Positions 9,338 through 29,700 of a stretch of DNA of 37,808 bases are shown piece by piece. Source of the DNA: Cyanothece sp. SIO2G6 (GTDB lineage: Bacteria; Cyanobacteriota; Cyanobacteriia; CAKZMO01). A program made the translations under genes and the position numbers. Numbering within the stretch: position 1 is the first letter of the stretch; each line of letters starts with the position of its first letter. Below the pieces are notes generated by a model that saw nothing but the letters and a program-made list of their open reading frames with translations, was not told the origin of the DNA and did not search any database. The stretch covers positions 1-37,808 of the forward strand of contig JAAHGY010000008.1 of assembly GCA_010672345.1 (NCBI GenBank), in the 5' to 3' direction.

Positions 9338-9435
9338 AAATGGTTGTTCTAACTATTCTAATGGTTGGGGTGGAAATGCGATACGTGCTCTGCACAGACA
9401 AGCGATCGCCCCTTTCCATTGAATGCGATCGCTCC

Positions 9436-11641: not shown

Positions 11642-11820
11642 AACTGAAAGATAAAATCACTAAAACCAGATAGCCAAATCGTTAAAACAAACCTAACATT
11701 GGCTTCTTAAATGGCAGTTCTGAGTCGAGAGTTTTACAAAAAGTTATAGGCAGGCAACTCCTAATAACCATGTAACCAGTGGATTAAGCGAGCTAACTAT
11801 TTATTAGAGGGAAACTTTCT

Positions 11821-11942
11821 GCCTAATCCCCCAATATGGCAGATTAGATAGAAATATTTCAGCCTAATCCTCCAATTTAGGGGGATTAGGTAGAAAACTG
11901 TCCGCCTAATCCCCCGTATATGGGGATTAGATGGAATGACTC
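11821..11942. repeat. three tandem ~41-bp units, each a GCCTAATCCCCC..GGGGATTAG hairpin
   Basis: units start at 11821, 11862 and 11904; the whole unit repeats with no unique spacers. Confidence 0.75.
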
Positions 11943-12563: not shown

Positions 12564-13355
12564 TCAGGTCGCCAGGATTTCCTTGACCCGACTCGCCAAC
12601 TCCCGCACTGCCGATCGCTGCCCGATCGTCTTCGCCCGTTCCATAAACTGTGGCAATTCCAGAACAGGCATTTGGGGAAACGCCAAACTCGTTGAGGTTT
12701 CCTGATAATCAGTCTGCTCAGCATTCAATTGATAAATCGTCAAAATACCCCGACGCAATCGCCAAATTTCCGGGATTTTCAACGCTGCATAAATGGGAAA
12801 TTTATTTAGTGAACCATGACTGTTATCCACTTCCACCGCTAAATCCGGAGGTGGGTGAATCTCAAAATCCAACGTCTCAACTCCCCGGACCACTGCCTCA
12901 TTTTGGATATAAAAGCACCCATCTGGTTCCAGTCCCTTTTGTTGGCCCGGATTTTTCATCGTCAGCGAACCGAGGCTACGCAGTTCTAGTTCCAACACAT
13001 CAATAAAAACGGCTAAAAAATGTTCAAATAATCGTGTTGGTTCTTCATGCTGTTCGAGGGGAACCATAATTTCCAAAAAACCATCACAGTACGTAAACCG
13101 TTGATGACGGTGTTCTCCGGTTTCTGCTAACAATCGTTCGTAAGTCTCCCAGCTAATACCTTCCAAAACAATCCGTGTTGCGGCAGTGGATGGAGCGATA
13201 TCCGGTGCAGTGGCATGTTTTTCAGGATGAGCTTGGGCAACATCAGCTTGGGCAACATCAGCTTGAGACACATCGCCAATAGGGTGACGTTGCGCTGTCG
13301 AGTTTTCCTCTAATCTCACAGCTGATTGTTCTTCTTGCAACTCATTTATAACCAT
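12564..13355 (-). CDS. Uma2 family (DUF820) endonuclease with N-terminal low-complexity extension
   Basis: ISWETYERLLAETGEHRHQRFTYCDGFLEIMVP...PDLAVEVDNSH...IPEIWRL, the Uma2 pattern. Confidence 0.85.
   Translation of the reverse strand: MVINELQEEQSAVRLEENSTAQRHPIGDVSQADVAQADVAQAHPEKHATAPDIAPSTAATRIVLEGISWETYERLLAETGEHRHQRFTYCDGFLEIMVPLEQHEEPTRLFEHFLAVFIDVLELELRSLGSLTMKNPGQQKGLEPDGCFYIQNEAVVRGVETLDFEIHPPPDLAVEVDNSHGSLNKFPIYAALKIPEIWRLRRGILTIYQLNAEQTDYQETSTSLAFPQMPVLELPQFMERAKTIGQRSAVRELASRVKEILAT
13231..13275. repeat. 15-bp x3 in-frame tandem repeat (GCTTGGGCAACATCA)
   Basis: two perfect units and one diverged; encodes DVSQADVAQADVAQA in the Uma2 N-terminus. Confidence 0.8.
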
Positions 13356-13401
13356 AGCAAACGGATAGTAAACAGAGATTGATCCTTATTCTAATAGATT
13401 C

Positions 13402-13458
13402 GTCCGAAAATTAGAGTAGAGTGCCCGCTGAGCGGGCACTCTACTCTAATTTTCGGAC
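13402..13458. repeat. perfect 27-bp-stem hairpin, 3-nt loop
   Basis: GTCCGAAAATTAGAGTAGAGTGCCCGC tga GCGGGCACTCTACTCTAATTTTCGGAC; lies in a divergent intergenic region. Confidence 0.9.
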
Positions 13459-13570
13459 AGGTCTAATGATTTGGGTGGAAATGCGATCGCCCCCTCTTGT
13501 TTCTCACAAAGGCTAGATACGCGATCGCTCTTCTCTCTTCTCCCTGATGTTATAGCCGTAGACACTTCAG

Positions 13571-13625
13571 TTAGGACAGAGATGTTTTTGTGGGGGCACT
13601 TCGTGCCCCCACAAAAACGTCCTAA
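13571..13625. repeat. hairpin GTTTTTGTGGGGGCAC ttc GTGCCCCCACAAAAAC extended by TTAGGAC/GTCCTAA
   Basis: 16-bp perfect stem (13584-13599 and 13603-13618) plus a 7-bp outer stem with a 6-nt bulge; the arm sequence recurs at 23280-23295 and 23444-23458. Confidence 0.9.
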
Positions 13626-15825: not shown

Positions 15826-16899
15826 TCACTTGCAGCACGAAATGTCGGTTACAGTCTTACCCAGATCATGGCTCTCCCAAGGATCGCCCATTCCTGCCAG
15901 CACCCGTCGGGGACCAGAAAAAGGCTGCCGTCCGTGGGTTGCTAACATATTGTCCAACAGCAACACGTCCCCCGCTTGCCAAGAAAACAAGATCGCTTCT
16001 GCGGTAAACGCTTGGTGAACCATTTCTAGCACATCAGGGGGAATGTCTGCCCCATTGCCATAGTAGGTGTTGCGGGGCACCCGATCAGCGGCAACACTCG
16101 CAAGCAAATTGGCTCGAACCGCAGGGTCCAATGTATTGATATTGAAGAGATGGGCCTGATTAAACCAAACAGCCTCTCTGGTGTGGGGATGGTGGGCGAT
16201 CGCCTGACACACTTGCCGCGTTTGTAACTGGTCACCGTCATGCCAGGTAAACTCAATCTGAGCTTGCTGACAGTAAGCTTCTACCTCAGATCGGTCCTCT
16301 GTTTGGAACACTTCCTGCCAGGGTAAATCCAGGCCACCGCCATAGTTACGGACGTACAATACCCCCTGTTGTTGAAATCGCGATCGCACGGCTGGATCAA
16401 TCCGCTCCAGAATACGGCGACTATCCGCGATCGGGGTTGCGCCTCCCTCAGCGGCAGGTTGCACACAATAGAAAGCAATTCTCAAGGGCCACTGACACGC
16501 ATAAGCCATCTCGTTGTGGAGAGGAATGGCACGATTGGCCGGATATTCCGTGGAGGTGTAGACGGAACCTTGCACTTGGGTACGAGGTGTGGAGCGGTAG
16601 GTATAGGGCATGGGTGGGTGGGCGATCGCCTGGATAAACTCACCAAAACCCTCGACCCCCGCCACCTGAAACCCACGAAACAGCACGCCGCCATGGTGGT
16701 GGAGCCACTGAGTAATCGTAGTCGGGTGGTGGGATATCCAATCCGTCAAACTTAATTCCGCTTGGGTCGGTTGCACCAGGAGGGGCAGGGCTGAATCGGG
16801 TTGCAGAGGGGTGGTCTGAACCAGAGTTTCGGTATTGAGGCTGACGCGCCGCCGTTGGCGCTTACCGGGAAAAGCAGTGGGTGATGTGGGTGATGGCAT
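15826..16899 (-). CDS. TauD/TfdA-family Fe(II)/2-oxoglutarate dioxygenase (SyrP-like amino-acyl beta-hydroxylase)
   Basis: VLFRGF..PLHNEMAY (HxE)..GGATPIAD..LDNMLATHGRQPF (distal His plus Arg); paralogue of the domain fused to NRPS-B. Confidence 0.85.
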   Translation of the reverse strand: MPSPTSPTAFPGKRQRRRVSLNTETLVQTTPLQPDSALPLLVQPTQAELSLTDWISHHPTTITQWLHHHGGVLFRGFQVAGVEGFGEFIQAIAHPPMPYTYRSTPRTQVQGSVYTSTEYPANRAIPLHNEMAYACQWPLRIAFYCVQPAAEGGATPIADSRRILERIDPAVRSRFQQQGVLYVRNYGGGLDLPWQEVFQTEDRSEVEAYCQQAQIEFTWHDGDQLQTRQVCQAIAHHPHTREAVWFNQAHLFNINTLDPAVRANLLASVAADRVPRNTYYGNGADIPPDVLEMVHQAFTAEAILFSWQAGDVLLLDNMLATHGRQPFSGPRRVLAGMGDPWESHDLGKTVTDISCCK

Positions 16900-16902: not shown

Positions 16903-19900
16903 TTAGGACTCCTCCTGGGAAGGCTGGGAACGAACAGTTTTGCGTCGGGTCATGCGGAGTTTTTGTAAGTGAGTTCGTGATAGGGTCTGAGCCTGCTGCT
17001 GCTGTCGCTGCCGATCCAGGCTGTTGAGATGAGCTTGCCAGTCCCCTACGGAAGCATCGGGGTGAGCCACAAGCCACTGGAGCAGCGCTTTCAGATAGTG
17101 GAGCCAGCGCTCGGTGGTGTCTGCGGTAAAACAGGTGCGATCGCTCATAATCTGCAACACAAATTCTTCCCTTGGCAGCACCCGCAGGGTCAGGGGATAG
17201 TTATTGTTGCGAGACGTTGCTTCCGACAGCATTGTCAGCTTCGTTTGAGTCGAGGCACCCACCGCGTCCACCCGGTAATTTTCAAACACAATCAGGCTTT
17301 CAAACAGAGGTATGCCAGCAGGTAGCTCACTCCACCGTTGAATCTGATTCAGGGGGCTATATTCATACTGGCGAGCCTCGCTACGCTGGGTTTGCAGGGC
17401 TTGCATCCAGGTCATAATGCCCATATCTGCGATCAGCTTGACCCGCACTGGCAAGGTGTTGATAAAGAGGCCCACCATTTTGTCCACACCCGCGAGGCTG
17501 GGAGGTCGTCCCGCTGTGGTTGCACCAAAGACAATGTCGGTCTGGCCGCTAATCTGACTGAGAAGAATAGCCCAGGTTGCCTGAACCAAGGTGTTGGGGG
17601 TAATCCGATGCTGTTGGGCCAGGGTCTGAATGGCCGTAGCGGTGGCAGAATCTAAGGTGAAACCTTGAATTTCGTGGTTGGGGAGAGCGCCTTGGGGTTT
17701 CTGATAACCCAGAGAAGTGGGGGTCTGGAAGCCCTCCAGCAGGGAAGTCCAAAAGGTCTCTGCCGTGGATAAATCTTGGGCCATTAACCAGGCAATGTAC
17801 TCTCGATAGGGACGGCGCTCCGATAAGGTGGGCTGTTGCCCCTGGGTCAAGTTTTCGTAGAGCGTGAAGATTTCCTGAATCACCATCGGCATCGACCAGC
17901 CATCTAAGAGGATGTGATGACAGCTCCAAATGATATCGTAGGTATCATCGGTGACTTGCACTAGGGTGGGACGCATCAGGGGGGCAATGTGAGGTTGGAA
18001 GCCCGTGCGCTGATCCTGCTCCAGCAGTGCAGCTAAGTTAGTTTTTTGTGCGGCGGGTGTTTGCGATCGCCAATCATGCACCTGCCAAGGGACAACGACC
18101 TGCTGTTGCACCACCTGTAATGGCTCAGGCAAATCTTGCCACACAAATGCTGTACGGAGGATGGGGTGGCGATCGCTAATCAGTTGCCAGGTTTTCTGGA
18201 GCGCGGCCACATCCAGTTCACCCTGAAGACGGCAACAAATTTGGGTAACATACATGCCATCATCGGGCGCGTAGAGTGCATGGAATAAAAATCCTTGCTG
18301 GATAGGGGTGAGGGGATAGCAGTCTTCAATTTGGGGATGACGTGCGACTAGACAATCGAGGGTCGCTTGATCCAGTTGTGCCAAGGGAAAATCGGAGGGA
18401 GTATAGCCACCTGCTGCGGGACTGAGGCAGTGAGCCATGAGCGATCGCAACGTCTCCAAAAAAAACTGAGCCAGAGTCTCAATAGTTGATGGCGAGTACA
18501 CAGACACCTGGTAAGTCCAGCATAACCGCAACTGGCCTGCAACAATATTGCTATCGATATAGAGGCTATAGGTTTGACTTTGCCTCAACTTTGTTGCTTG
18601 GATCACCCGAAGCTGTGGAGCTTCAGTTTCCATCTCCTTATCACCATTGAGATGCTCAGATAAGTGTTCAGAGTGGCTAAAGTAAATGGTCGGGAGTAGT
18701 TCAGACGCTGTTGAACTGTCTGCTTGTCTGGCAGCCTGTCGATGTTGTTCTTTAATCGTTTTAATCGCAGAAGCTGGCTGATCAATATCCGTTAGGTCAA
18801 ACGCAATCGGACAGAGTGTTTCAAACCATCCGATGGTGCGGGATACATCCATATCTTCAACCAGATGGTTACGTCCCTCCCTAGCAAGGTCAATCGCTAG
18901 CGTAGATTCCTGTGTGCAATGGGCATAGGTTTGTACTAAGGCAGTAAGCAATACTTCGCAGGTGTGGGTGCGGTAAGCGAGGGGCACGTGCTGAAGCAGG
19001 GTTTGGGTATTTTCCGTGTCTAGGCTGACGGTTAAGCTGGCGATCGCGGCGGTTTCTCCACCCGCAGAATCAAGCGACGGTTGTATTGATGGCTGGTCCT
19101 GCTCCAGAGGCTGATCCTGATACTCCTGGTGCTGGAGCCGTTGACACCACTGCTGCAATGAGTGGGTTTTCGCCGATAGTCGCAGGGTCTGGCCTTGTAA
19201 CTGTTGTTGTAACAAAGTTTGGATGTCGCCTGTAAGAATCTGCCAGGAAGTAGGGTCAATTACAAGCTGATGAGCAATGAGGAGCAGATGTTGTAAATCC
19301 TCTTGGGTGGTAGGCTCTAGCAGAATAGCTTGAAACAGCGGCCCAGTAGCCAAATCCAGATTGTTCTGGAAGTTGTTGATAACGGTGGCGATTACCCTTT
19401 CCCTATCAACCCCAGACAGCGTAACCTGACTCACCAACCCTGGAGGCAAATGATCCAAGGCTGGATCATTATGTTGCGTCCAGGTGGCATCCTGCTGTTG
19501 GAAACTCAACCGCAACCCATCATGGTGATTCAGCAAATGATGGATGATGACTTGCAGATTCTCCAGAGTCAAGGGCTGTCGTAACTCTAGCTCCAAGGTC
19601 TGATACCACTGGCGATAATCGGTGGAGGGTTGGTCGAAAAACCAGCGTTGGATTGGTGTCAGCGGAATTGGGCCTACCACCGTGCCTTGGTCAGCAGTCG
19701 TGGCCGTTTCCACCACAGTTGCCAAGGTTCTGATAGTTTGGTGCTGAAATAGCTGCTTGGGGGTAAGTTGCAGTCCAGCCTGGTTCGCTTGAGCAATAAT
19801 CTGCAAGCTGAGGATGGAATCTCCTCCCAACTCAAAAAAGTTATCGTCGATGCCAATGGTGGAAACCCCCAGCACCTGGGTCCAGATGGTGGCAAGCTGT

Positions 19901-22900
19901 TGTTCTAGGGGCGATCGCGCCGCAGTAAATGGAGCCGCCAAACCAGAGCGATCGGGATTGGGCACATCAAGCGATTGCAATTTGGCCCGGTCAATTTTGC
20001 CGTTAGCGTTGAGGGGCATTTGCTTTAGCCAAACAAATGTCGCTGGCACCATGTAGTCCGGTAGTTGTGCCTGTAATTCCTGGCGCAAGTCTTGGACCGA
20101 GCAAGGTGGCTCAACGTCAAGCTTAATGTTGGCACTTACCCCCCTTAATCCCCCCTTGGTAAGGGGGGAAACCTTCGGAACTCCCTCCCCTTGGGAAGGG
20201 GAGGGCTGGGGTGGGGTAGACGGCATCACTGGGGCCAGATCTGAGTTAATCCCATCAGAGTTAGTCTCGGAGACGGTTTCAGCCTCAGCCTCAACCTCAA
20301 TCGAGTGCTGTGGTGTCAAATAGGCAACCAGTCGATTTTGTCCCGATTGGTCCGTTTGCACCATCACCACCGCATCTTGTACTTGGACAAGATGACGTAG
20401 TTTGGCTTCAATCTCACCCAGTTCGATCCGAAAACCTCGGATTTTTACTTGGTGATCAATCCGTCCCAGATACTCAAACGTACCATCAGGCAAATAACGA
20501 GCTAAATCACCCGTTTTGTAAAGACGACCCGAACCAAACGGATTGGCGATAAATCGTTCTGCCGTTAGCTTTGGCCGGTTGAGATAGCCCCGTGCTAGCC
20601 CCACACCACCAATGTACAGTTCACCTGGAATACCGATCGGTACAGGCTGTAGGGAACGATCGAGAATCATGCTTTGGAGATCCGGTAGCGCCCTGCCAAT
20701 GGGACTACTGGGCTGGTCTAAATCCAGTTTACTGAGCGGACGATAGGTCACATGCACTGTCGTCTCGGTGATGCCATACATGTTCACTAGTTGAGGCTGT
20801 TGGTCCCCATGTCGCTCAAACCAGGGCCGCAAGCTTTCGACTGCCAGCGCCTCGCCGCCAAAGATGACATAACGCAATTTTAAGGTGTCAGCCGGATAGT
20901 CAGCATCCACTTGAATCAACTGACTAAAGGCCGATGGAGTCTGATTGAGAACGGTAACCTGCTGTTCAACCAAGAGGTCATAAAATTCCTGGGAAGAGCG
21001 GCTGACCCAATAAGGCACCACCACCAGCCGTCCCCCATAGAGCAAGGCACCCCATAGTTCCCATACCGAAAAATCAAATGCATAGGAGTGGAAAAACGTC
21101 CAACAATCCTGATGATTAAAGTTGTACAGAGAGGCCGTCGTGTCAAATAGACGCACAACATTCTGGTGGGGAATCATCACGCCTTTGGGAATGCCTGTTG
21201 AACCGGAGGTGTAGATAATGTAAGCCAGGTTGTCAGCCGTGACTTCCGTATCCAAATTCTCTGACGGTAGCTGAGTAAGGGTCGGCCAGATTTCATCCAA
21301 ACAAACGATTGGAGCATCCAGGTGCGGCAATTCTTCCAGCAGGGCTGCTTGGGTCAGGAGCAGGGAAATATGGGCATCCTCAACCATAAATTGGAGCCGT
21401 GAGGGAGGATAGGTGGGGTCCAAAGGAACGTAGGCTCCGCCTGCTTTCAGAATTCCGAGTAACCCCACGATCATGTCGAGGGAGCGTTCTACACAAATCC
21501 CGACCAGAACCTCTGGGCCAACTCCCAAAGCCTGGAGGTGACGTGCCAGTTGATTTGCCCGTTGATTCAGTTCAGCGTAGGTGAGGTGATGGTGCTCAAA
21601 GGTAACGGCGATCGCCTCCGGATACTGCTCAACTTGGGCTTCAAAGCGCTGGTGCAGACAAACTAGAGCAGATGCTTGACCGTCTGGTTGCGGCTCTTGG
21701 ATCTGTCGCCAATCTCTGAGTTGGGCTGATTCGCCTGGGGTGAGTAAGGGAAGCCTGTCGAGGCAGGTGTCGGGATTGGCGGCAATGCCCGTCAGCAAAA
21801 CCTGGAAATGACCCAGCAGCCGCTCAATGGTGGCACTGTCAAACAGATCGCTGCTGTACTCCAGCGTGCCCTGCAAACAACCTTCAGATTCAACCACGGT
21901 TAACGTGAGGTCAAACTTGGCAGTGTTCCTGGCTAACTCCAGAGGCTGTAGGGTTAGCCCCGGTAAGCTGAGACCAGTATTGGGAGCATTTTGCAACACC
22001 AGCATTACTTGAAACAAGGGTGTATGGCTTAGGTCCCGTGGCAGTTGTAGGGTTTCAACCAGCTTTTCAAAGGGCAAGTCCTGATGGCTATAGGCTCCCA
22101 GGGCCACCTCACGCACCTGATTGAGTAGTTGCCGAAAACTGGAATCTCCGTCTAGCTGGCTCCGCAAGGCTAGGGTATTCATAAACAAACCAAGCAGCCC
22201 TTCGAGCGCCGCATGATTCCGATTGGCGATGGGTGAACCGACGGTAATGTCGGTCTGGCCTGTATAGCGATACAGCAGGGTTTTCAGGGCAGCTAGGAGC
22301 GTCATGAATAGGGTCGCATCAGCCGCTTTGCTCAGACTTTTAAGGGCTTGGGTTAACTCTGTGGATAAGGAAAAATTCTGGTGGCTGCCACGAAAGCGTT
22401 GTACGGCTGATCGGGGGCGATCGCTCGGCAACTGCAACACTGGAGGAATAGTGGCAAATTGTTGCTGCCAATAGTGAATTTGTTTTTGTAAATACTCTCC
22501 CTGGAGTCGCTGCCGTTGCCAGAGGGTAAAGTCTGCATATTGGAGGGGTAGGGACGGTAGCGGGTTGGGCAATCCTTGGGTGAAGGCGTGATAAAGCGTG
22601 GCGATCTCCCGCACCAACACCCCGGTAGACCAGACATCTGAAATGATGTGGTGTAACGTTACTAGCAAGACAAACTCCTGGTCTGCCAACGTTAGCAACG
22701 TCACCCTCAGCAACGGACCCTGGCGGAGATCAAAGGGTTGATGCACCTCTTTTTGGGCCAGCCGCTCCACTTCGTCCCAGGGCTGTTCGTCCAGGGCAGA
22801 CAAATCAATCTGCGTTAATGTCGTCAGTCCTTGGGAATGAATAATCTGTTGAGAATGCCCCCCAAACTCAGCACCCACACTGCCATTGTGGGGATTACTT

Positions 22901-23220
22901 TCGGTGCTGCTGGTATCGGCAATGGTCGTCCGCAGAATTTCATGGCGCTGCACTAAGGTTTGCAACACCTGCTCCAGAGCAGTAGTATCCAGCTTCCCTT
23001 GCAGATGTAGCCCAAAGGGAATGTTGTACAGCGGACTATCGGGTTCAAATTGGTACAAAAACCAAAGACGTTGCTGCGAAAACGATAGCGGTACTACTGC
23101 GTCAGGAGAACGGCGAGGAATGGTAGGCACTGGTGCGGTTCTGCCTTTGAGACGCTGAGCCAGGAGTGCTTGCTTAGCCGCAGAAAGTTTGGATTTGCGC
23201 GTTGATGTTGGGTCTGCCAT
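16903..23220 (-). CDS. NRPS-D: C-A(Thr)-T-E(degenerate)-C
   Basis: 2105 aa; motifs [99 protein letters not shown]. Confidence 0.95.
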   Translation of the reverse strand: MADPTSTRKSKLSAAKQALLAQRLKGRTAPVPTIPRRSPDAVVPLSFSQQRLWFLYQFEPDSPLYNIPFGLHLQGKLDTTALEQVLQTLVQRHEILRTTIADTSSTESNPHNGSVGAEFGGHSQQIIHSQGLTTLTQIDLSALDEQPWDEVERLAQKEVHQPFDLRQGPLLRVTLLTLADQEFVLLVTLHHIISDVWSTGVLVREIATLYHAFTQGLPNPLPSLPLQYADFTLWQRQRLQGEYLQKQIHYWQQQFATIPPVLQLPSDRPRSAVQRFRGSHQNFSLSTELTQALKSLSKAADATLFMTLLAALKTLLYRYTGQTDITVGSPIANRNHAALEGLLGLFMNTLALRSQLDGDSSFRQLLNQVREVALGAYSHQDLPFEKLVETLQLPRDLSHTPLFQVMLVLQNAPNTGLSLPGLTLQPLELARNTAKFDLTLTVVESEGCLQGTLEYSSDLFDSATIERLLGHFQVLLTGIAANPDTCLDRLPLLTPGESAQLRDWRQIQEPQPDGQASALVCLHQRFEAQVEQYPEAIAVTFEHHHLTYAELNQRANQLARHLQALGVGPEVLVGICVERSLDMIVGLLGILKAGGAYVPLDPTYPPSRLQFMVEDAHISLLLTQAALLEELPHLDAPIVCLDEIWPTLTQLPSENLDTEVTADNLAYIIYTSGSTGIPKGVMIPHQNVVRLFDTTASLYNFNHQDCWTFFHSYAFDFSVWELWGALLYGGRLVVVPYWVSRSSQEFYDLLVEQQVTVLNQTPSAFSQLIQVDADYPADTLKLRYVIFGGEALAVESLRPWFERHGDQQPQLVNMYGITETTVHVTYRPLSKLDLDQPSSPIGRALPDLQSMILDRSLQPVPIGIPGELYIGGVGLARGYLNRPKLTAERFIANPFGSGRLYKTGDLARYLPDGTFEYLGRIDHQVKIRGFRIELGEIEAKLRHLVQVQDAVVMVQTDQSGQNRLVAYLTPQHSIEVEAEAETVSETNSDGINSDLAPVMPSTPPQPSPSQGEGVPKVSPLTKGGLRGVSANIKLDVEPPCSVQDLRQELQAQLPDYMVPATFVWLKQMPLNANGKIDRAKLQSLDVPNPDRSGLAAPFTAARSPLEQQLATIWTQVLGVSTIGIDDNFFELGGDSILSLQIIAQANQAGLQLTPKQLFQHQTIRTLATVVETATTADQGTVVGPIPLTPIQRWFFDQPSTDYRQWYQTLELELRQPLTLENLQVIIHHLLNHHDGLRLSFQQQDATWTQHNDPALDHLPPGLVSQVTLSGVDRERVIATVINNFQNNLDLATGPLFQAILLEPTTQEDLQHLLLIAHQLVIDPTSWQILTGDIQTLLQQQLQGQTLRLSAKTHSLQQWCQRLQHQEYQDQPLEQDQPSIQPSLDSAGGETAAIASLTVSLDTENTQTLLQHVPLAYRTHTCEVLLTALVQTYAHCTQESTLAIDLAREGRNHLVEDMDVSRTIGWFETLCPIAFDLTDIDQPASAIKTIKEQHRQAARQADSSTASELLPTIYFSHSEHLSEHLNGDKEMETEAPQLRVIQATKLRQSQTYSLYIDSNIVAGQLRLCWTYQVSVYSPSTIETLAQFFLETLRSLMAHCLSPAAGGYTPSDFPLAQLDQATLDCLVARHPQIEDCYPLTPIQQGFLFHALYAPDDGMYVTQICCRLQGELDVAALQKTWQLISDRHPILRTAFVWQDLPEPLQVVQQQVVVPWQVHDWRSQTPAAQKTNLAALLEQDQRTGFQPHIAPLMRPTLVQVTDDTYDIIWSCHHILLDGWSMPMVIQEIFTLYENLTQGQQPTLSERRPYREYIAWLMAQDLSTAETFWTSLLEGFQTPTSLGYQKPQGALPNHEIQGFTLDSATATAIQTLAQQHRITPNTLVQATWAILLSQISGQTDIVFGATTAGRPPSLAGVDKMVGLFINTLPVRVKLIADMGIMTWMQALQTQRSEARQYEYSPLNQIQRWSELPAGIPLFESLIVFENYRVDAVGASTQTKLTMLSEATSRNNNYPLTLRVLPREEFVLQIMSDRTCFTADTTERWLHYLKALLQWLVAHPDASVGDWQAHLNSLDRQRQQQQAQTLSRTHLQKLRMTRRKTVRSQPSQEES
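16996..18333 (-). other. NRPS-D terminal condensation domain (DCL-like)
   Basis: YPLTPIQQGFLFH, RHPILRTAF, CHHILLDGWS; followed only by a basic tail (RMTRRKTVRSQP) and the stop. Confidence 0.8.
18346..19668 (-). other. NRPS-D epimerization-like domain, core motifs degenerate
   Basis: E1 TPIQRWFF is present, but E2 reads AHQLVIDPTSW (19243-19275), EGHGRE reads EGRNH, and the GxGYG and FNYLGQ motifs are absent. Confidence 0.75.
19696..19908 (-). other. NRPS-D thiolation domain (GGDSI type)
   Basis: [14 protein letters not shown]; Ppant Ser codon at 19816-19818. Confidence 0.85.
19966..21663 (-). other. NRPS-D adenylation domain, predicted Thr
   Basis: hand-extracted 10-residue code DFWNIGMVHK, which equals the Thr code as remembered from the Stachelhaus table. 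Confidence 0.8.
20135..20217. repeat. double-hairpin palindromic repeat element, copy B, inside the NRPS-D coding sequence
   Basis: CCCCCCTTGGTAAGGGGGG and CCCTCCCCTTGGGAAGGGGAGGG hairpins; reverse complement of copy A; translated in frame as TPPQPSPSQGEGVPKVSPLTKGGLRGVS. Confidence 0.8.
21751..23103 (-). other. NRPS-D condensation domain (LCL-like), HHIISDVWS
   Basis: C1 LSFSQQRLWFL; C3 at 22627-22653 with Val in place of the usual Gly. Confidence 0.8.
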
Positions 23221-23279: not shown

Positions 23280-23458
23280 GTTTTTGTGGGGGGCGGGCGG
23301 ATTATGTGTTTAGCGAAGCCCAGTAGTATCGCAAGCCTAGCTTTACCCCCCTTAATCCCACCTTGTAAAGGGGGGAAATTTCGGTCCTCCCCCTTTGCAA
23401 GAGGGAGTTAGAGGGGTTGCTAAACACCTACGTAGCGGAGTCACGCCCCCCAAAAAAC
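23280..23458. repeat. composite nested palindromic element between NRPS-C and NRPS-D
   Basis: outer arms GTTTTTGTGGGGGGCG and CGCCCCCCAAAAAAC; inner arms GTGTTTAGC and GCTAAACAC; repeat copy C (23341-23417) sits in the loop. Confidence 0.7.
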
Positions 23459-23460: not shown

Positions 23461-26400
23461 CTACTCCTGCATCAATGCTTGAACTTCTTCATCTGTCATG
23501 GCCTCAATTTCTGCTAGGAGAGCAATTTCAACCACTTCAGCAATCTCTGCCACTGTATGGGCATCAAACAATTGGTGCAGAGGCAGTTCAACTTGAAAAA
23601 CTTCCCGTAAGCGCGATAATACCTGGGTGGCTAGCAGCGAATGGCCGCCTAAATCAAAGAAGTTATCGTTGACTCCAACGGTTTCCAGCCCTAGAACATC
23701 GGTCCAAATGGCGGCGATCGCTTCTTCGGTGGGATTGCGGGGAGCAACATACTCTTTGGAGAGATCCGGTCTAATCCGCTCCGGGGCTGGTAGAGCCTGT
23801 CGATCGACCTTGCCGTTGGGGGTCAGGGGCAGCGCAGACAAGGTAACAAATAGACTGGGAATCATGTAGTTGGGCAGTCGCTGTCGCAGAAACAAACGGA
23901 ACTCACCAGAATCTAGGGTTGTCTCGGTCGTTTTTTCAGGGTGAGGAACCGCAGGGTGAGGAACCACATAGGCCACCAGCACAGGGTTATTGGGGTCGTC
24001 CTCCCTAACAATGGTGCTTACCGCCTGGACATCGGGATGCTGGGCCAGTTGAGCCTCAATTTCCCCCAACTCGATGCGGAACCCGTGGAGTTTGACTTGT
24101 AAATCCACCCGCCGCAAAAACTCCAGATTCCCGTCGGGGTGACGACGAGCCAAGTCACCCGTGCGGTACATTCGCCCCCCAGATTGGTGGCTAAACGGGT
24201 CTGGTAGGAACCGCGCCGCTGTCAATCCTGGACGGTGCAGATAACCACGGGTCACTCCGTCACCGCCAATATAAACTTCCCCTGGAATGCCGATAGGAAC
24301 GGGTTGGAGGTCAGAGTCCAACAAGTAAACTTGGCTATTGGTCAGCGCTTGACCAATGGGGACGGTGGCGGCTGTTTGCTGGGCGGTGGTGCGAAAGGCA
24401 TGGGTCAGGGCACCAACAGTGGTTTCGGTGGGTCCGTAGTGGTTAAAGCTACGACAGTGGGGAGCCAATTGTTGGATCTGATCCATCAGCGACCAAGAGC
24501 AGGCTTCTCCGCCCAATACTAGCCGTTGACGGGGCAACATCTGCTCAGGCTGTGGAGTTTGGAGCAAGGCTCTCAGGTGGGATGGCACAATCTTGAGGCA
24601 GTCGATCGGGTGCTGTTGAGTATAGTCCACCAGCGCCTGGGCATCCCCAACCCGTTCAGCGGCAATCACATGCAGGGTTCCCCCCTGGCACAGACAGGGA
24701 AAGATCATGGTGTGGCCCAAATCAGCAGCCAAGGTTGACACGGTGGCGTAATGTCCCGCAGCAGGGAGGTCTAAGCGGTCAATGGCGCTGTCAACGTAGG
24801 AGAGCAACTGACGATGTTCAACGGCGACCCCTTTGGGCTGGCCCGTGGAGCCAGAGGTGTAGATAATGTAGGCCAGATTCGCCAGCATCACTGCACTGGT
24901 AGGATTGGCGCTGCTGTGTTGGGCGATGATGGGGCGATCGCCATCCAAACAAACCACCTGAGTCGTCACCGCCGTTTCCCGCAGTAATGACTGTCGGGTG
25001 ACTAAAATCTTGGCTTGGGCATCTTCCAGACGATAGCTGACTCCGTTGCTAGGCAGGGCAATGTCAATGGGCAGATAGGTGGCACCTGTTTTGAGGATGG
25101 CTAGCAGCGCAATTAATAAATCAAGCGATCGCTCCAAATAAATAGCCACAGGTACCTCTGGCCCAGCCCCTAATTGCTGGAGATGGTGAGCTAGTTGGTT
25201 AGCTTGGTGATTGAGTTCTTGGTAGGTGAGTTGTTGCGTTTCGTAAATCAAGGCAACCGCATTTGGAGTCCGTTCAACCTGCTGTTCAATGCGATGATGA
25301 ATGCAGGTGTTAGACACAATGTGGGCAGGGGTGGCGTTGGCCGTTGGTGTTAAAGCATCCGCTGCATCGGTTAACTTAAAGCTGCTGATGGAGGCTGTGG
25401 GCTGCTGACTCATGTGAGTGAGTAGAGACTGGAGTTGGTTACTGAGGGCGGCGATCGCCCCTGCACTGATCACGGTCTCGTTGTAGTGAAATTCCAACAC
25501 TAGTTGGTTATCCTGCTGGATTGCGGTTAACTTCAACTCTGGAGCTTGAGCATCGCTCCACGTTTGCTCAAGCCTGAACTCGACTCCGGCCACACTAACG
25601 GATGCAGGTTGGTGGATAAACTCAAAACTGATGGGCCATGGGACTGGGCGATCGCTCGGATAATAATCTTGCCATTCATTTAGTTCTTGCCAATTCTGTT
25701 CAACCTGACGGAGTAAAGCGGTAAAGGCGATCGCCCCAGAGATCTGACTGTGCAACGGTAACGTGTGGGTAAATGGCCCACAGACATCCACTAAGTCCTC
25801 ATCCTGACGACTTTCACAGGTGACTCCAAGCGTAATGTCAGATTGCTCTGTCTGTCGCCACAACACCACCAGCCAACTCGTTAGCAAAACTGTTTCCACA
25901 GCCGTATCCATTGCCAACAGAGTTTCAGCAAGGGGAGTCGCCAATTCCATTCGGTGGACGTTGGACCTAAATTGGTCCGGTTCAGCATCTCGATACCGTA
26001 AGGGTGGTAGCAAAGGCCCACGAGATGGTGATAGCTGTTGTTGCCAAAATGTTTGGGCAGCTTGACTCTCCTCATCAGCCTCTGTGAGCAACTGCTCTTG
26101 CCAGGTGGCAAACTGGACATACTGGACGGGTTCTTCTGTTAGCGATCGCCCCCCGTAACATTGGCTGATCTGGGCTAGCAGAATCTCACAGGTCTTGGTG
26201 TCAGCACAGAGTGCAGGTAGGGTCAGCAGTAGGATGTGCTTATTTTCACTCAGCTTAAACAGTGTTGCTTCAACCCAACTTGGTCCCGCTGGCTGAACCG
26301 ATTGCCGCTGCTTCGCTTGAAAGTTAGCCAAAGTGACAGCTTGTTCTGTGGCAGTGGCGGTCGCCAGATCAATCATCTGCCAATTAATGCTCCCCTGAGA

Positions 26401-26649
26401 TTGAATGGTTTGGAGGGGCAGCGTCAATCCTGGTGTTGACTGAAATGTTGTTCGCAGAATTTCATGGTGATTGACAACGGTTTGCAGCGCAGTTTGCAGC
26501 AGCGGCAAATCCAGGTTGCCTTGCAGCATTATGCGACACTGAGTTGTCAGAACCTGACCCAAGGCAGACTGTCGCCACCAAATCTGGCGTTGTTGAGAGG
26601 AGAGCTTAAAACCTGTAATCGTTGAGATCGTTGGGGATGACATAGGCAA
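23461..26649 (-). CDS. NRPS-C: His-less C-like (interface-type) domain-A(Asp)-T
   Basis: 1062 aa; LSSQQRQIWW, NHHEILRTTF, LPALCADTKT in place of HHxxxDG, LAYIIYTSGSTGQPKGV, YRTGDLARRHPDG, NGKVDR, FFDLGGHSLLA. Confidence 0.95.
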   Translation of the reverse strand: MPMSSPTISTITGFKLSSQQRQIWWRQSALGQVLTTQCRIMLQGNLDLPLLQTALQTVVNHHEILRTTFQSTPGLTLPLQTIQSQGSINWQMIDLATATATEQAVTLANFQAKQRQSVQPAGPSWVEATLFKLSENKHILLLTLPALCADTKTCEILLAQISQCYGGRSLTEEPVQYVQFATWQEQLLTEADEESQAAQTFWQQQLSPSRGPLLPPLRYRDAEPDQFRSNVHRMELATPLAETLLAMDTAVETVLLTSWLVVLWRQTEQSDITLGVTCESRQDEDLVDVCGPFTHTLPLHSQISGAIAFTALLRQVEQNWQELNEWQDYYPSDRPVPWPISFEFIHQPASVSVAGVEFRLEQTWSDAQAPELKLTAIQQDNQLVLEFHYNETVISAGAIAALSNQLQSLLTHMSQQPTASISSFKLTDAADALTPTANATPAHIVSNTCIHHRIEQQVERTPNAVALIYETQQLTYQELNHQANQLAHHLQQLGAGPEVPVAIYLERSLDLLIALLAILKTGATYLPIDIALPSNGVSYRLEDAQAKILVTRQSLLRETAVTTQVVCLDGDRPIIAQHSSANPTSAVMLANLAYIIYTSGSTGQPKGVAVEHRQLLSYVDSAIDRLDLPAAGHYATVSTLAADLGHTMIFPCLCQGGTLHVIAAERVGDAQALVDYTQQHPIDCLKIVPSHLRALLQTPQPEQMLPRQRLVLGGEACSWSLMDQIQQLAPHCRSFNHYGPTETTVGALTHAFRTTAQQTAATVPIGQALTNSQVYLLDSDLQPVPIGIPGEVYIGGDGVTRGYLHRPGLTAARFLPDPFSHQSGGRMYRTGDLARRHPDGNLEFLRRVDLQVKLHGFRIELGEIEAQLAQHPDVQAVSTIVREDDPNNPVLVAYVVPHPAVPHPEKTTETTLDSGEFRLFLRQRLPNYMIPSLFVTLSALPLTPNGKVDRQALPAPERIRPDLSKEYVAPRNPTEEAIAAIWTDVLGLETVGVNDNFFDLGGHSLLATQVLSRLREVFQVELPLHQLFDAHTVAEIAEVVEIALLAEIEAMTDEEVQALMQE
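23515..23727 (-). other. NRPS-C thiolation domain
   Basis: FFDLGGHSLLATQV; Ser codon at 23638-23640; acidic C-terminal tail EIEAMTDEEVQALMQE. Confidence 0.85.
23740..25302 (-). other. NRPS-C adenylation domain, predicted Asp
   Basis: hand-extracted code DLTKVGHVGK versus the remembered Asp code DLTKVGHIGK (9 of 10, Ile to Val). Confidence 0.75.
25345..26622 (-). other. NRPS-C N-terminal C-fold domain lacking catalytic histidines
   Basis: codons 26197-26217 read P-A-L-C-A-D-T where HHxxxDG is expected; C1, C2, C4 and C5-like motifs are retained. Confidence 0.8.
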
Positions 26650-26767: not shown

Positions 26768-29700
26768 TTAAGTTGCGGCAGATGTGACTGAATATATCTG
26801 GCTCAATTTCGCCTGAGTCATCATTTCACCCATCGCCACTGCAATCATGCGAGACCCCGTATAGGCATGTCGTCCGTGAGCCATCAGCATGTTGTCAAGC
26901 ATGATTATGTCTCCTTGCTGCCAGTCGAAGACCTGTTCCGCTTCGGTGTAGGCGGCTTGCAACCCATTGAGTACCTCCGGCTCAATGGTAGACCCATCGC
27001 CGTAATACACCTGACGCGGCAGTCGGTCTTCCCCAAAGAGCGAGAGAAGAGACTGCTGGGTAGGTTGATCCAGATAGGACAAATGGTGCAGTTGGAGTTG
27101 GTTAAAAACGACCCATTCCCCAGTCAGGGGATGACGGACCAAAGCCGGACGGATTTGACGGGTTTGTAAACCATCATCGGCCAGCCATTCCCACTCAACT
27201 CCGGCAGCTTGGCAACGTTGTTCCACTACAGCACGATCATCGGTGTGAAAAAAGTCTTGCCATGCCACATCCAGCCCTTTGATGTAATTGCGAACGTACA
27301 TGAGTTGCTTCTGGTGGAGGCGATCGCGCATCTCCGGGCTTAACAACTGATAGGCCTTGCGACAATCAACAATTGGGGTCGCACCGCCCTGTTTTGCAGG
27401 TTGCAAACAGCAGAACCAAATCTTCATCGGCCACTGTTGTAAATGGGAACTCTCGTTGTGAAACAGGATGGCCTTATCTTCGGGATAGGGGGTAGAACCG
27501 TAAACCTTATCACTGACTCCCGTGCGAGGCAGATCACCGTACTCTCCAAACAGATCGGGACAGATTGCTACCGCTGCCTGTTCAAAATCCTTAGCGGTTT
27601 CAATTGAGAATCCCCGAAAAAGCAATGCCCCATGTTTGAGCAACTTATCGTTCAACGCCGCTCGTTCGCCCTTGGCCCACAGGACTAAATTCACATCATG
27701 GTTGTTGGGCTGGACCGTCATCACCCCACAGGGAAGGGGCTGGATTGTCACCAGATCAGTGGTGGCCTGCTGCACTGCCTGTGGAGTCACTCGTTTGAAC
27801 TTCTTCCGTCGTTTTGCACCTTTTGCGCCTTTTGATCCAGCTTGCGGTTGTGTCACCATCGAGGTAAGAGTCTCCAAATCAATATCAGGTTGAGCCACCA
27901 CTTGACTCAGCAGGGTTTCAAATTGTTGGGCTAAGCGGCTGATGGTGTCCTGGGTAAAGCGATCGCCGCTATAGTTCCAGGAAACTGTAAGACCTGTAGG
28001 CGTTTCACTGACAAACAGCGCCAAATCAAACCGGGCTGAGTGGGTATTGAGCGTAACCGGAGTCAGGGTTAGATCTAGCAATTCAAAAGAATTGAAAGGA
28101 GCATTTTGCATCACAAACAACACCTGGACAAATGGAGTGACCCCACTACGGCGAGCATCAGGTTGTAGCGCTTGCACCAGTTGGGAAAAAGGTAGATCTT
28201 GGTGGGCATAACTCTCTAACGTTACCTCCCTGACCCGCTGGAGCAAGTCTTGGAAAGTGGGATTGCCTGATAAATCCGTGCGTAATACGAGCAAATTGAT
28301 AAAGAAGCCAATCAGTCCTTCAATTTCAGTGCGATTGCGATTGGCAATATCGGTCCCCACCATCATGTCAGGCTGACCACTGTGGACATACAAGAGGGCT
28401 TTGAACCCTGCTAATAGCGTCATAAACAAGGTAGTACCGTGGGATTGACTAAGCTGATGCAGCTTACTGGCGAGAGCTGCTGATAGATGGAATGTGGACA
28501 TATCTCCCTGGAAGCTGGGCGTTTCTGGAGGGGGATAGTCCGCCGGAAGCTTTAACACAGGCAACTGCCCGCCTAATTTTTGTCGCCAGTAAGCAAGCTG
28601 TTGGTCGAGCACCTCATCCGTCAGCCATTGTCGCTGCCACACAGCAAAGTCGGCATACTGAATCGGCAAGGATTCTAGCAAGGGGAGTGACGCGGTGGTG
28701 TAGGCGGTATAGAGAGTACTCAACTCATGCACCAGCACCCCTGTAGACCAAATATCCGAAATGATGTGATGGATAGTCCATAGCAAGATGTACTCTTGGT
28801 CCTGTAGCTGTAAAACACTAGCGCGGAATAATGGGCCTTGGGTGATGTCAAAGACTTCCTGGTCGGCAGCAGTTGCCAACCGCTGAACCTCTTCAGGTTG
28901 CTGGGTTGGAGATAGCGATCGCAAATCCACTACAGGTAACGTTGTTGTCAAAGTTGGAGCAATCTGCTGGATGGGTTGACCTTGGTGCAGGATAAATGTG
29001 GTTCTGAGAATTTCGTGACGATCGACAATGGTTTGCAAACTGTGATGGAGCGGATCAAGGTGGAGGTTTCCGGTTAAGCGCACCGCCACGGTTTGGTTAT
29101 ACACCGCACTGTCAGGGTAGAGTTGTTCCAAAAACCACAGTCGTTCCTGGGCAAAGGATAAGGGGAGGGGCTGATGGCGATCGCATCGAGTAATCATATC
29201 CTGTTGCGTCTGACGCTGTTCCCCGACCCAGGTAGCTAATTCAGCTACGGTAGGAGTTTCAAACAGTTGTCGGACCGAGATATTCACATGGAAAATCTGT
29301 CGCATCCGAGCAATCACCTGGGTGGCGAGGAGGGAATGACCGCCCAACTCAAAGAAGTTATCGTAAATCCCCACTTGCTCCACAGGTGAGGTCAGGATTT
29401 TGGCAAACAAGGCTGCGATCAGTTTTTGCGGTTCGGTTTGGGGCGCAACAAACTCGGTTGTGCGCTCATAATTAGGTTCAGGTAAGGCTTTGCGATCGAC
29501 TTTGCCATTAGGGGTCAGGGGCAACGCTGGCAAACACATGACCACATTGGGAACCATGTAATCGGGCAGATGTTGTCTGAGGTGTTGCTTGAGCTGGAGT
29601 TTGAGCTGCTGAGTATCGGTATCGCTGACCACGTAGGCGACCAATCGCTCCTGGTCTGCCTTGTCCTTGTGCACCACCACCGTACACTGCCGCACCTGTT

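Follow-up and report, generated by a model that had tools for sequence, protein, structure and literature searches.

The G/C-rich triplex motifs BoxC, PIT and TM (TMECO) occur as many dispersed and conserved copies, frequently in inverted pairs, with loops that vary and stems that are conserved (Bachellier et al.; Hoyne and Maher 2000; Holder et al. 2015, PMC4666352). Such motifs are reported to be abundant in cyanobacteria, and no transposase or integrase remnants were found near TMECO sites (PMC4666352). Rickettsia palindromic elements (RPEs; Ogata et al. 2000, 2002; reviewed in PMC10969869), which measure ~100-150 bp and of which a large share is intragenic, are read through as a conserved peptide within their host proteins. 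REPINs, in turn, are REP doublets that form hairpins and are mobilised by RAYT transposases (Bertels and Rainey 2011, PMC3116915). REP-like GC-rich palindromes have been described in the mcyD and mcyA genes of Planktothrix, and MITEs in the mcy genes of Anabaena (PMC4766695; Fewer et al. 2011). At the protein level, enzymes that are active can naturally carry inserts of 300-800 residues at the a8-a9 site of their adenylation (A) domains (PMC8341866). In-frame insertion of a repeat is already known as a kind of event, and the case described here, in the gene NRPS-D, is an unusually clear one.

Three copies of one repeat are present in the window, by which we mean the whole 37,808-nt stretch of Cyanothece sp. 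SIO2G6 DNA that was analysed. Copy A (9257-9337, minus strand) is intergenic, just upstream of leuS (6645-9263, minus strand). Copy B (20136-20219, plus strand), a full-length repeat, lies within NRPS-D (16903-23220, minus strand), and copy C (23341-23417, plus strand), the most degenerate of the three, occupies the 240-nt spacer between the NRPS-C stop at 23461 and the NRPS-D start at 23220. An nhmmer profile built from 117 copies, all from other genomes, matched exactly these three elements and nothing more in the window (copy A at 9257-9335, E=2.6e-17; copy B over profile positions 3-89, E=1e-20; copy C at 23343-23416, E=9.7e-14). The aligned copies have a mean column identity of 76%, and a 38-nt arm of copy A (9257-9294) is 95% complementary to its counterpart in copy B (20180-20217). 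A 19-nt hairpin pattern, with up to three mismatches allowed, matched the window seven times versus 0.02 matches expected, and a 25-nt hairpin pattern matched it twice versus 0.00 expected. The three double-hairpin copies proposed in an earlier, sequence-only reading of this DNA are thus related both on proper alignment and by an independently derived profile, and the coordinates and lengths given there agree with ours to within 1-2 nt. A putative degenerate fourth copy in NRPS-B (28676-28701) has no hairpin partner and was rejected as a chance match.

The repeat consists of two inverted halves that are near-copies of each other, with outer arms that pair and tails that are 81-99% conserved even though they lay outside the search pattern. 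In copy B (features on the plus strand), the left outer arm, TTACCCCCCTTAAT (20136-20149), is made up of a C-run tail and a TTAAT loop and pairs with the right arm in DNA and RNA folds; it is 82-97% conserved among the 117 foreign copies, although absent from the search pattern, and on the opposite strand it forms the G-run third block of the left triplex-type unit. Hairpin 1, CCCCCCTT-ggt-AAGGGGGG (20150-20168), has a perfect 8-bp stem and a 3-nt loop (RNA, -13.6 kcal/mol), and is followed by a variable inter-unit spacer of 12 nt (20169-20180), which in other copies ranges from 8 to 23 nt with a mode of 18-19. Hairpin 2, CTCCCTCCCCTT-ggg-AAGGGGAGGG (20181-20205), has a perfect 10-bp stem (RNA, -19.2 kcal/mol). 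The right outer arm (20206-20219) runs from a CT loop through GGGGTGGGG to TAG, and its consensus, GTTAGGGTGGGGTAA, is 81-99% conserved in the 117 foreign copies. The G+C content of copy B is 63% versus 52.5% for the NRPS-D gene.

Judged by its sequence, the repeat pairs two intrastrand-triplex motifs of the BoxC/PIT/TM type in inverted orientation and is not an anonymous MITE, a class with which it shares terminal inverted repeats, small size and the lack of a coding capacity of its own. The class II block order is present, namely a C-rich stem, a loop, a G-rich stem, a second loop of 2-5 nt and a mirror G-rich block, with the second loop of each half being TTA-like or C-containing. The right unit reads CTCCCTCCCC - TTGGGAA - GGGGAGGG - CT - GGGGTGGGG, and the left unit, on the opposite strand, CCCCCC - TTACCAA - GGGGGG - ATTAA - GGGGGG. 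As the purine-motif triplex requires, the G block of the right arm is a mirror image of the G arm in hairpin 2, matching GGGGAGGG read backwards with A facing T; when the reversed arm GGGAGGGG is set against the tail GGGTGGGG, A again stands opposite T. The block pattern (PMC4666352) also holds for the consensus of the 117 copies. The cyanobacterial right half is nearly identical in sequence to units from E. coli (GGGAGAGGGTTAGGGTGAGGGG) and Photobacterium (CCCTCCCCTTGACAAGGGGAGGGTTAGGGTGGGGT). The exact TMECO pattern, CCCTCNCCC N3-6 GGGNGAGGG N3 GGGNGAGGG, differs from the stems found here (CCCTCCCC / GGGGAGGG / GGGGTGGGG), and the element is therefore best described as related to TMECO, in the same class, but distinct from it. 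Rfam contains no family that fits the element: at gathering thresholds the window yielded a glutamine riboswitch only, and sub-threshold matches were far below the cut-off. Literature queries with strings from the element sequence returned only papers on G-quadruplexes and promoters.

Whereas TMECO is described as always intergenic in E. coli MG1655 (PMC4666352), copy B is predicted to be translated. Its 84 nt correspond to exactly 28 codons of the NRPS-D ORF and are read on the minus strand (20134-20217) as TPPQPSPSQGEGVPKVSPLTKGGLRGVS, residues 1002-1029, without a stop, as had been claimed; three of the six frames of copy B are stop-free. NRPS-D encodes 2105 residues in an intact ORF with the architecture C-A-T-C-like-C (Condensation; AMP-binding, 526-880; PP-binding, 1107-1169; and two more condensation-type regions). 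The element lies in the loop between YLTPQH and VEPPCSV (20116-20304, minus strand), which spans 63 residues (973-1035) versus 25 residues in the element-free loop of the paralogous A domain of NRPS-A (37525-37599, minus strand), in agreement with the lengths first reported. The original placement between A8 and A10 is correct and can be narrowed to A8-A9, since on the minus strand the loop is preceded by the A8 core motif (20407-20466) and followed by the A9 motif LPDYMVP (20044-20064) and then A10 (NGKIDR, 19987-20004). The element accounts for 28 of the 38 extra residues relative to the paralogue. The first 29 residues of the loop are acidic, of low complexity and not derived from the element, an acidic expansion that was already present in the lineage. 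Overall, the A8-to-A9 distance is 129 aa in NRPS-D versus a median of 65 aa in 52 further A domains.

The insertion point is identical to that of the A8-M-A9 interrupted A domains (TioS, PDB 5WMM; PMC8341866), that is, after the last beta strand and between a8 and a9. The boundary sequence is RLVAYLTPQH, of which LVAYLTP fits the motif L(V/A/I)(A/G)(Y/F)xxP that marks the A/M boundary in these enzymes (PMC8341866), and the match of residues 1-70 of the NRPS-D query to 5WMM stops at chain residue 487. In LgrA the two conserved halves are only 2 residues apart, and in L174 a PilZ domain fills the equivalent A8-A9 loop. The inserts of A8-M-A9 enzymes are catalytic domains of 290-800 residues, whereas that of NRPS-D is a translated repeat of 28 residues without a domain, and Pfam detected no domain within the copy B loop. 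NRPS-D offers natural-product enzymology a natural experiment, in which a probably unstructured 28-residue insert occurs exactly where engineers graft domains (a8-a9).

We judge the insertion to be real. The copy B segment is absent from paralogue A1, from the remaining three A domains of the window, from 50 database homologues, from the nearest metagenome relatives (L123-L125, which are 60-65% identical, have loops of ~10 residues and are not orthologues) and from the 52 further A domains, so that it is not a feature carried by homologous A domains in general. The exact NRPS-D protein is absent from the databases, in which the best homologues are 55-58% identical, and no collection searched contained an orthologue or an empty site; a search for empty sites by joining the flanks of 120 repeat-bearing loci gave only artefacts of neighbouring copies. 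At the DNA level, the loops of NRPS-D and NRPS-A are too diverged to define the insertion point to the base. Consequently, our case for the insertion event is a comparison with paralogues and with more remote homologues only. An ancestral low-complexity linker that came to resemble the repeats by chance or convergence would be in keeping with the homologous loops, which are of low complexity and variable in length (that of homologue P0013 is moderately long and unrelated), and an assembly artefact, with a repeat read misplaced into the gene, would be in keeping with the observation that repeats do break contigs, several repeat-bearing loci terminating inside a copy. Either explanation is nevertheless highly improbable, given that the profile match covers all 84 nt of copy B and keeps the two hairpins and the two arms in register, that the segment is missing from every homologue examined and that the reading frame is continuous on both sides, with flanks homologous to the paralogue resuming within ~20 nt.

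We consider it very likely that the NRPS-D coding sequence received a copy of a dispersed G/C-rich repeat, itself non-coding, and has kept it as a translated and, most likely, near-neutral passenger. A repeat copy would have inserted by some mobility or gene-conversion mechanism, and would have survived because its 84 nt make up exactly 28 codons, because the frame in use is free of stops and because the site is the A8-A9 surface loop of the C-terminal subdomain, after LVAYLTP, a natural insertion site for methyltransferase domains. The product would be a disordered, Pro/Gly-rich 28-residue extension, neutral or nearly so, of a loop already lengthened in this A-domain lineage. With AF2, the A-subdomain and the PCP were modelled with confidence, residues 70-132 of the model formed coil with a pLDDT of ~50, and Foldseek matches of the model were NRPS A-PCP structures. 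The Pro/Gly-rich segment is thus predicted to be floppy or disordered, and is probably tolerated by the enzyme.

Insertions of repeats and MITEs are known to inactivate cyanobacterial mcy genes (PMC10969869, PMC4766695), and it might be supposed that copy B has likewise crippled the A domain, with NRPS-D or the entire cluster becoming a pseudogene whose ORF has yet to decay. AMP-binding_C was missed by Pfam in NRPS-D (E<=1e-5), an outcome expected of a domain split by an insert although a damaged domain would look alike, and the active-site motif of the second condensation-type region, AHQLVID, is degenerate. We regard inactivation as unlikely, however, since the 6.3-kb ORF is unbroken, the core motifs A3-A10 and the carrier serine motif GGDS are present, the A8-A9 site accommodates far longer inserts in active enzymes (PMC8341866) and the fold of the subdomain is kept in the AF2 model. 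The inactivated host genes likewise set the Anabaena MITEs apart from the reading that we favour, of a near-neutral translated passenger. The Planktothrix palindromes resemble the present repeat in that they are short palindromes inside NRPS/PKS genes with members of the same family in the intergenic spacers of the cluster; they differ in length (43-45 bp) and sequence, and have been noted mainly as IS target sites.

The repeat is found elsewhere in cyanobacteria, at no fewer than 120 loci of other genomes, with hosts in Nostoc, Tolypothrix, Scytonema, Chamaesiphon, Coleofasciculus, Kastovskya, Crinalium, Acaryochloridaceae and Pseudanabaena. Full and partial copies together numbered 169 in 868 kb; the density in the present window is 3 copies in 37.8 kb. 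Approximately 5-8% of the sampled copies lie in long open frames. In-frame copies were located in an N-6 DNA methylase, in a protein assigned to TIGR03032 and in a RefSeq type I PKS, whose KR domain contains the element. A further copy separates the domains of a nitrite/sulfite-reductase-like protein, another NRPS A domain carries an in-frame half element of 39 nt, and the family is also found in a PKS fragment. For annotation, this means that triplex-type repeats described as intergenic in E. coli are translated in RefSeq-annotated PKS, NRPS, methylase and reductase genes of cyanobacteria. These in-frame copies came from DNA searches of annotated plasmids. Peptide searches, which are insensitive to such short and biased queries, returned only one spurious ORF of 74 aa for the 42-aa window peptide in two large protein libraries, and 19 short hypothetical proteins but no large protein for a 52-aa Nostoc-type peptide. 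The element also gives rise to many spurious 'hypothetical proteins' of 50-90 aa. By analogy, copy B would work like an RPE, being a dispersed palindrome that is in frame, stop-free, located at a fold-compatible position and recurrent in unrelated genes; we do not claim membership of the RPE family, which differs in sequence and occurs in other bacteria.

Copy B may alternatively have been co-opted and be non-neutral, for instance at the protein level, where a flexible Pro/Gly loop might affect rotation of the A-subdomain or docking of a partner. It is the best preserved copy in the window (68 bits versus 57 and 46 for the other two), both of its stems are perfect, and the family recurs in megasynthase genes. 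In addition, strong mRNA hairpins, suggested from the sequence at the outset, are predicted by folding: the 84-nt RNA of copy B folds at -46.8 kcal/mol and ranks first in stability among the 520 windows examined on the 6.3-kb mRNA (median -19.5 kcal/mol; next independent window -32.4 kcal/mol), with a z-score of only -1.5 against dinucleotide shuffles of itself. Recent insertion, however, explains the good preservation equally well, and the in-frame copies occupy unrelated proteins and positions, as expected of random insertions filtered by tolerance alone. Nothing comparable is present at the A8-A9 site of any homologous A domain, and in E. coli work PIT elements had no promoter, terminator or RNA-polymerase effect (PMC4666352). 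Co-option therefore appears improbable. No terminator or promoter was found within copy B. As a near-neutral passenger in the protein, copy B could still act at the DNA level as a potential hairpin or triplex site able to slow polymerases or favour rearrangement, as suggested by analogy with E. coli TM elements, should such structures form in vivo.

The element has terminal inverted repeats, TTACCCC...GGGGTAA, and in 87% of a set of 95 copies the two outermost nucleotides form inverted complements, the elements measuring 73-88 nt from the A end to the T end. In the same 95 copies, direct repeats of at least 3 nt, the sign of a target-site duplication, were no more frequent than expected by chance, a TA duplication being indistinguishable from the ends of the terminal inverted repeats, and no parent IS with the same terminal repeats was seen in the repeat-bearing loci. 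To our knowledge, no transposase is known for repeats of the BoxC/PIT/TM type. Of the initial description of a mobile intergenic repeat turned coding, it is the dispersal and the in-frame reading that stand, and 'mobile' is deduced from the dispersal only. The repeat resembles REPINs in its two inverted palindromic units, variable spacer, capacity to form a single long hairpin, no observed target-site duplication and occurrence as both clusters and singlets. No RAYT gene flanked by element units was found, and the window contains none; Y1_Tnp/IS200-like fragments lie 50-280 nt from copies at 3 of 120 loci (L093, L106 and L063). The RAYT-associated REP of N. punctiforme has a different sequence and was rejected as the same repeat.

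A tentative and rather doubtful proposal is that the repeat belongs to a cross-phylum family of triplex-type doublets (BoxC/PIT/TM) whose missing partner is a small DUF559 endonuclease, as RAYT is for REPINs. We take these DUF559 endonucleases, a subfamily of PF04480, to be Vsr-like proteins with a PD-(D/E)XK fold, represented in E. coli by YcjD. In three Nostoc genomes, the local version of the repeat lies on both sides of a DUF559 gene or directly next to it, and the composite occurs in three unrelated flank contexts; adjacency of a DUF559 gene and the local repeat was also observed in Pseudanabaena, Picosynechococcus PCC 7002 and Photobacterium. If the proposal is correct, the repeats would spread via a nuclease-dependent route and occasionally colonise permissive loops of megasynthases. 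The flanking of DUF559 genes in two phyla makes this nuclease a concrete candidate for maintaining BoxC/PIT/TM elements. The ycjD gene of E. coli K-12 has its stop codon inside a degenerate unit, after which comes a canonical TMECO; in Salmonella, TMECO is reported to be missing. E. coli genomes with ycjD contain 14-27 further copies (median 20), and those without it 1-21 copies (median 11), with phylogroup B2 strains containing 1-2.

The sequence-only reading had noticed three copies of a double-hairpin element in the window, placed here at 9257-9337 (copy A), 20136-20219 (copy B) and 23341-23417 (copy C), and their relatedness withstands alignment, with a mean column identity of 76% across the three and 95% complementarity of copies A and B along a 38-nt arm. 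One hairpin core occurs 7 times in the window against 0.02 expected and the other twice against 0.00; the 37.8 kb also hold 57 occurrences of HIP1 (GCGATCGC), which marks the DNA as cyanobacterial. The strongest test of the observation, independent of the window, is a profile HMM trained on 117 element copies, all from genomes other than the source, which returned exactly these three matches: copy B (20136-20219, E=1e-20, profile positions 3-89), copy A (9257-9335, E=2.6e-17) and copy C (23343-23416, E=9.7e-14). Adjoining copy A are two 38-nt inverted repeats (9374-9411 and 10191-10228; 87% complementary, 779 nt apart). They may mark the termini of a small mobile element or be what remains of one.

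Copy B is laid out as TTACCCCCCTTAAT, CCCCCCTT-ggt-AAGGGGGG, aaaccttcggaa, CTCCCTCCCCTT-ggg-AAGGGGAGGG and CT-GGGGTGGGG-TAG, forming two stems without mismatch, and its outer C-run arm pairs with the outer G-run arm. In the 117 foreign copies the halves are inverted near-copies of one unit, the consensus being CCCCCCTTnnnAAGGGGGG-ATTAA-GGGGGGTAA for the reverse-complemented left half and CCCTCCCCTTnnnAAGGGGAGG-GTTAG-GGTGGGGTAA for the right. The arms are 81-99% conserved in these copies, though they lay outside the search pattern, and variation is seen in the 3-nt loops and in a central spacer of 8-23 nt (mode 18-19). Around 95 copies no direct repeat of at least 3 nt was detectable as a target-site duplication. 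However, 87% of the 95 have inverted-complementary dinucleotides (TT...AA) just beyond their A...T ends, and because of this property of the flanks a TA target duplication could still be present. Copies are clustered and include half copies, with 169 full or partial copies in 868 kb.

The window carries four NRPS genes identified by Pfam, all on the minus strand (16903-23220, 23461-26649, 26768-35539 and 35656 to the window end). Copy B is read through without a stop in the first of these, NRPS-D, translating as TPPQPSPSQGEGVPKVSPLTKGGLRGVS (20134-20217) inside an ORF of 2105 aa, and the interval from YLTPQH to VEPPCSV comprises 63 residues in NRPS-D (20116-20304) against 25 in its paralogue NRPS-A (37525-37599), both as originally described. 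Since the collections searched hold no NRPS-D orthologue, insertion is argued by comparison. The adenylation (A) domain core motifs A8 and A9 are separated by 129 aa in NRPS-D, by 91 in the paralogue and by 63, 65 and 74 in the window's other three A domains; in 52 A domains of metagenome homologues the median separation is 65 (range 60-81), with one outlier of 176 aa that has a PilZ domain in this loop. If the segment were an ancestral linker, homologous A domains should share it, and none of 50 database homologues does; in the nearest relatives, L123 (65% identity) and L124/L125 (60%), the anchors YLTPQ and CSV/SV are retained on either side of a loop of about 10 residues, and in LgrA the gap between the two conserved halves is 2 residues. 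The comparative lengths thus suggest that an acidic low-complexity extension, common to the paralogue, came first in the lineage and that NRPS-D later gained 38 residues. The proposal that a repeat became coding sequence in the A domain is upheld for 28 of these; the remaining extra residues are not element. The G+C content of the element is 63%, compared with 52.5% for the gene, and copy B is the best preserved of the window copies against the foreign-copy profile, which would fit a recent arrival.

Copy B is 84 nt long, exactly 28 codons, and three of its six frames are free of stops, so that a copy of this kind inserted at random in a gene would be read through in about half of cases. It lies directly after RLVAYLTP, which fits the motif L(V/A/I)(A/G)(Y/F)xxP; this motif marks the boundary after the last beta strand, where A domains are interrupted between a8 and a9 by methyltransferase domains 290-800 residues long (PMC8341866). 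The repeat occupies the canonical interruption site of the A domain. In an AlphaFold2 model of the A-subdomain and carrier domain, built on a 52-sequence alignment, confidence is high in the conserved parts (mean pLDDT 81.5, 142 residues at 90 or above), whereas the loop, residues 70-132, is modelled as coil, with no secondary structure and pLDDT of about 50; a Foldseek search with the model matches NRPS A-PCP structures with probability 1.0. The ORF is unbroken and motifs A3-A10 are all present, and on this sequence and model evidence the insertion is probably tolerated. A metagenome NRPS A domain (L174, ~2506-3050) carries a PilZ domain (PF07238, E=3e-15) in the same a8-a9 loop, a cargo absent from the interrupted A-domain families, all M-domain interruptions, described in the available portion of PMC8341866. 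Elsewhere in NRPS-D, a middle condensation-type region (residues ~1430-1440) reads AHQLVID where the HHxxxDG active-site motif is expected, and may therefore be an inactive epimerisation- or condensation-like domain. A TauD-family dioxygenase gene occupies 15826-16899, and NRPS-B carries another such dioxygenase at its C-terminus.

A two-hairpin pattern scan of the genome collection gave at least 120 loci, nearly all cyanobacterial among the matches listed, which include Nostoc, Tolypothrix, Scytonema, Desmonostoc, Dolichospermum, Chamaesiphon, Coleofasciculus, Kastovskya, Crinalium, Acaryochloridaceae and Pseudanabaena. The right half alone was found by plasmid search at ~90-95% identity in Photobacterium, Aeromonas, Sphingobium and Pelobacter. 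Every one of the 5426 complete E. coli genomes has the equivalent unit, CCCCTCGCCCCTCTGGGGAGAGGGTTAGGGTGAGGGG, at 1-30 places (median 17). This unit is BoxC, known also as the PIT element or 'TMECO', which Holder et al. (2015; PMC4666352) characterised as a G/C-rich class II intrastrand triplex motif. As described there, TMECO consists of a C-stem, loop, G-stem, 3-nt loop (TTA or CCG) and mirror G-stem, folds into a triplex in vitro, lies in MG1655 'always intergenic', occurs in some cases as inverted pairs and is linked to locus instability; no transposase or integrase remnants were found near its sites, and motifs of this type are abundant in cyanobacteria. Both halves of the window element share this block architecture and keep the mirror of arm and tail (GGGGAGGG reversed against GGGTGGGG, A opposite T) but fail the exact TMECO consensus, and we therefore place the element in the triplex-motif class rather than in TMECO. 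Its layout of an inverted doublet with spacer is also that of a REPIN; no RAYT gene flanked by element units was found in the window or the repeat-bearing loci sampled, and the sequence differs from the published RAYT-associated REP of N. punctiforme. IS200-like Y1 transposase gene fragments lie 50-280 nt from element copies at three Nostoc loci (L093 2653-2925, L106 2974-3456 and L063 801-1064), one of them broken by a 23S-rRNA-IVP (four-helix-bundle) gene. Rfam has no family for the element.

A repeat from the triplex-motif class, intergenic by the E. coli description, is yet translated in NRPS-D. Among 122 element copies picked by sequence alone, 10 lie in open spans of at least 150 aa and 6 in spans of at least 300 aa. 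One copy separates the two halves of a nitrite/sulfite-reductase-like protein (L044) and another lies upstream of a pseudouridine-synthase domain (L006); others fall within a GT4 glycosyltransferase (L030) and where a PKS contig is cut off (L049). On Nostoc sp. C052 plasmid pC052_C (L203 6001-6088), a full element that is 92% identical to the Nostoc consensus lies in frame in the ketoreductase (KR) domain of the type I PKS WP_179070242.1 (...WGPWSES-YGRITPLNPPFPRGEKEKSSSLPFTRGGLGWGNSS...GM...), and annotated RefSeq plasmids hold a full element in a TIGR03032 protein (L204) and an element array in Planktothrix N-6 DNA methylases (L206). Another NRPS A domain (P0031; L121 70-120), on a contig labelled Candidatus Sericytochromatia, carries a 39-nt half element, hairpin 2 with the G tail, which is read in frame between A5 and A6 as SLPLLRGGLGWGS. 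Judged from these reading frames, the translated copy in NRPS-D is not a one-off. Translated repeats are already known as Rickettsia palindromic elements and MITE ORF fusions in Anabaena and enterobacteria (PMC10969869, PMC3184786), and Planktothrix mcyD and mcyA contain REP-like GC-rich palindromes (PMC4766695). The earlier observation is confirmed and its interpretation supported, with the refinements given here: copy B is a translated dispersed palindromic repeat, a phenomenon of known type, and is notable for its triplex-motif class and for its position at the A-domain interruption site. Gene callers also make 'hypothetical proteins' of 48-91 aa from intergenic copies (P0121-P0140, for example P0121, ...STPPQPSPWQGEG...SSPLTKGGLRGV...), a source of spurious protein families.

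Strong mRNA hairpins had been anticipated, and the predicted fold of the 84-nt element as RNA (-46.8 kcal/mol; single hairpins -19.2 and -13.6) is the most stable among 520 overlapping 84-nt windows of the mRNA (median -19.5, next independent -32.4). The element has no terminator-like tail. Purine-motif triplexes are not formed in RNA, and PIT elements block DNA polymerase in vitro without promoter, terminator or RNA-polymerase effect (PMC4666352). For these reasons any effect of copy B would more likely concern the replication or stability of the DNA, or the speed of translation.

In three Nostoc genomes an ORF of ~126 aa encoding a DUF559 protein (PF04480, E=8e-31; Vsr-like endonuclease) lies between two element copies (L043 4079-4662, L072 4448-5115 and L103 5605-6212), starting 24-30 nt from one copy and ending with its last codons inside the other. 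The 1.5-kb flanks of the three share no similarity, so these composites are in different contexts. A DUF559 gene of Pseudanabaena ABRG5-3 is flanked on both sides by doublets of other sequence and the same architecture, and doublets lie 3' of the DUF559 gene in Picosynechococcus PCC 7002 and Photobacterium GJ3; Photobacterium gave the best plasmid match to the DUF559 protein, on a replicon with 28 repeat places. In E. coli K-12 a degenerate unit overlaps the stop codon of ycjD, with a canonical TMECO ~150-200 nt downstream (L213 195-761; the loci of the Pseudanabaena, Picosynechococcus and Photobacterium genes are L208 280-1005, L211 344-953 and L207 490-1300). Two Synechocystis plasmid DUF559 genes have no such repeats. 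ycjD is present in 3378 of 5426 E. coli genomes, and eefRABCD replaces it in phylogroups B2, D, E, F and G (PMC12817139). Among 58 E. coli chromosomes sampled at even spacing, other TM places number 14-27 (median 20) in the 37 that have ycjD and 1-21 (median 11) in the 21 that lack it (Mann-Whitney p = 6e-9, uncorrected for phylogeny). TMECO numbers 13-30 per strain in A/B1/C and 1-2 in B2 (table of Holder et al., PMC4666352). That study mentions neither ycjD nor any endonuclease, and we did not find the DUF559-repeat association in the publications consulted. These observations fit a role for DUF559 as a RAYT-like partner of triplex-type repeats, but phylogroup history alone could account for them equally well, and the role is a tentative and rather unlikely proposal; the window itself has no DUF559 gene.

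Other repeats and motifs were observed in the window. Inside NRPS-B (26768-35539, minus strand), about six copies of a 15-nt tandem repeat (32020-32111) are in frame as pentapeptides DLSVSGLNVSGLSVSDLSVSGLNVSRLNVSVSD, in the second condensation domain immediately ahead of the FDL..GPL motif. A glutamine riboswitch aptamer (RF01739) lies at 365-422 on the minus strand, scoring 59.7 bits against a gathering score of 35. At 11812-11936 a 41-nt unit is repeated three times in tandem, each with the hairpin CCTAATCCCC-aatat-GGGGGATTAGG; this G/C-run hairpin repeat is distinct from the element and reminiscent of the Pseudanabaena-type units. A palindrome with 35-nt arms (13395-13465; 91%, 1-nt loop) and a hairpin with 19-nt arms (13581-13621; 95%) sit between a Uma2-family gene (12564-13355, minus strand) and an ORF (13745-15700, plus strand) with an eCIS_core domain and a weak Tox-HDC toxin domain, in which a 60-nt (20-residue) unit is repeated in tandem about three times towards the N-terminus (14211-14400).
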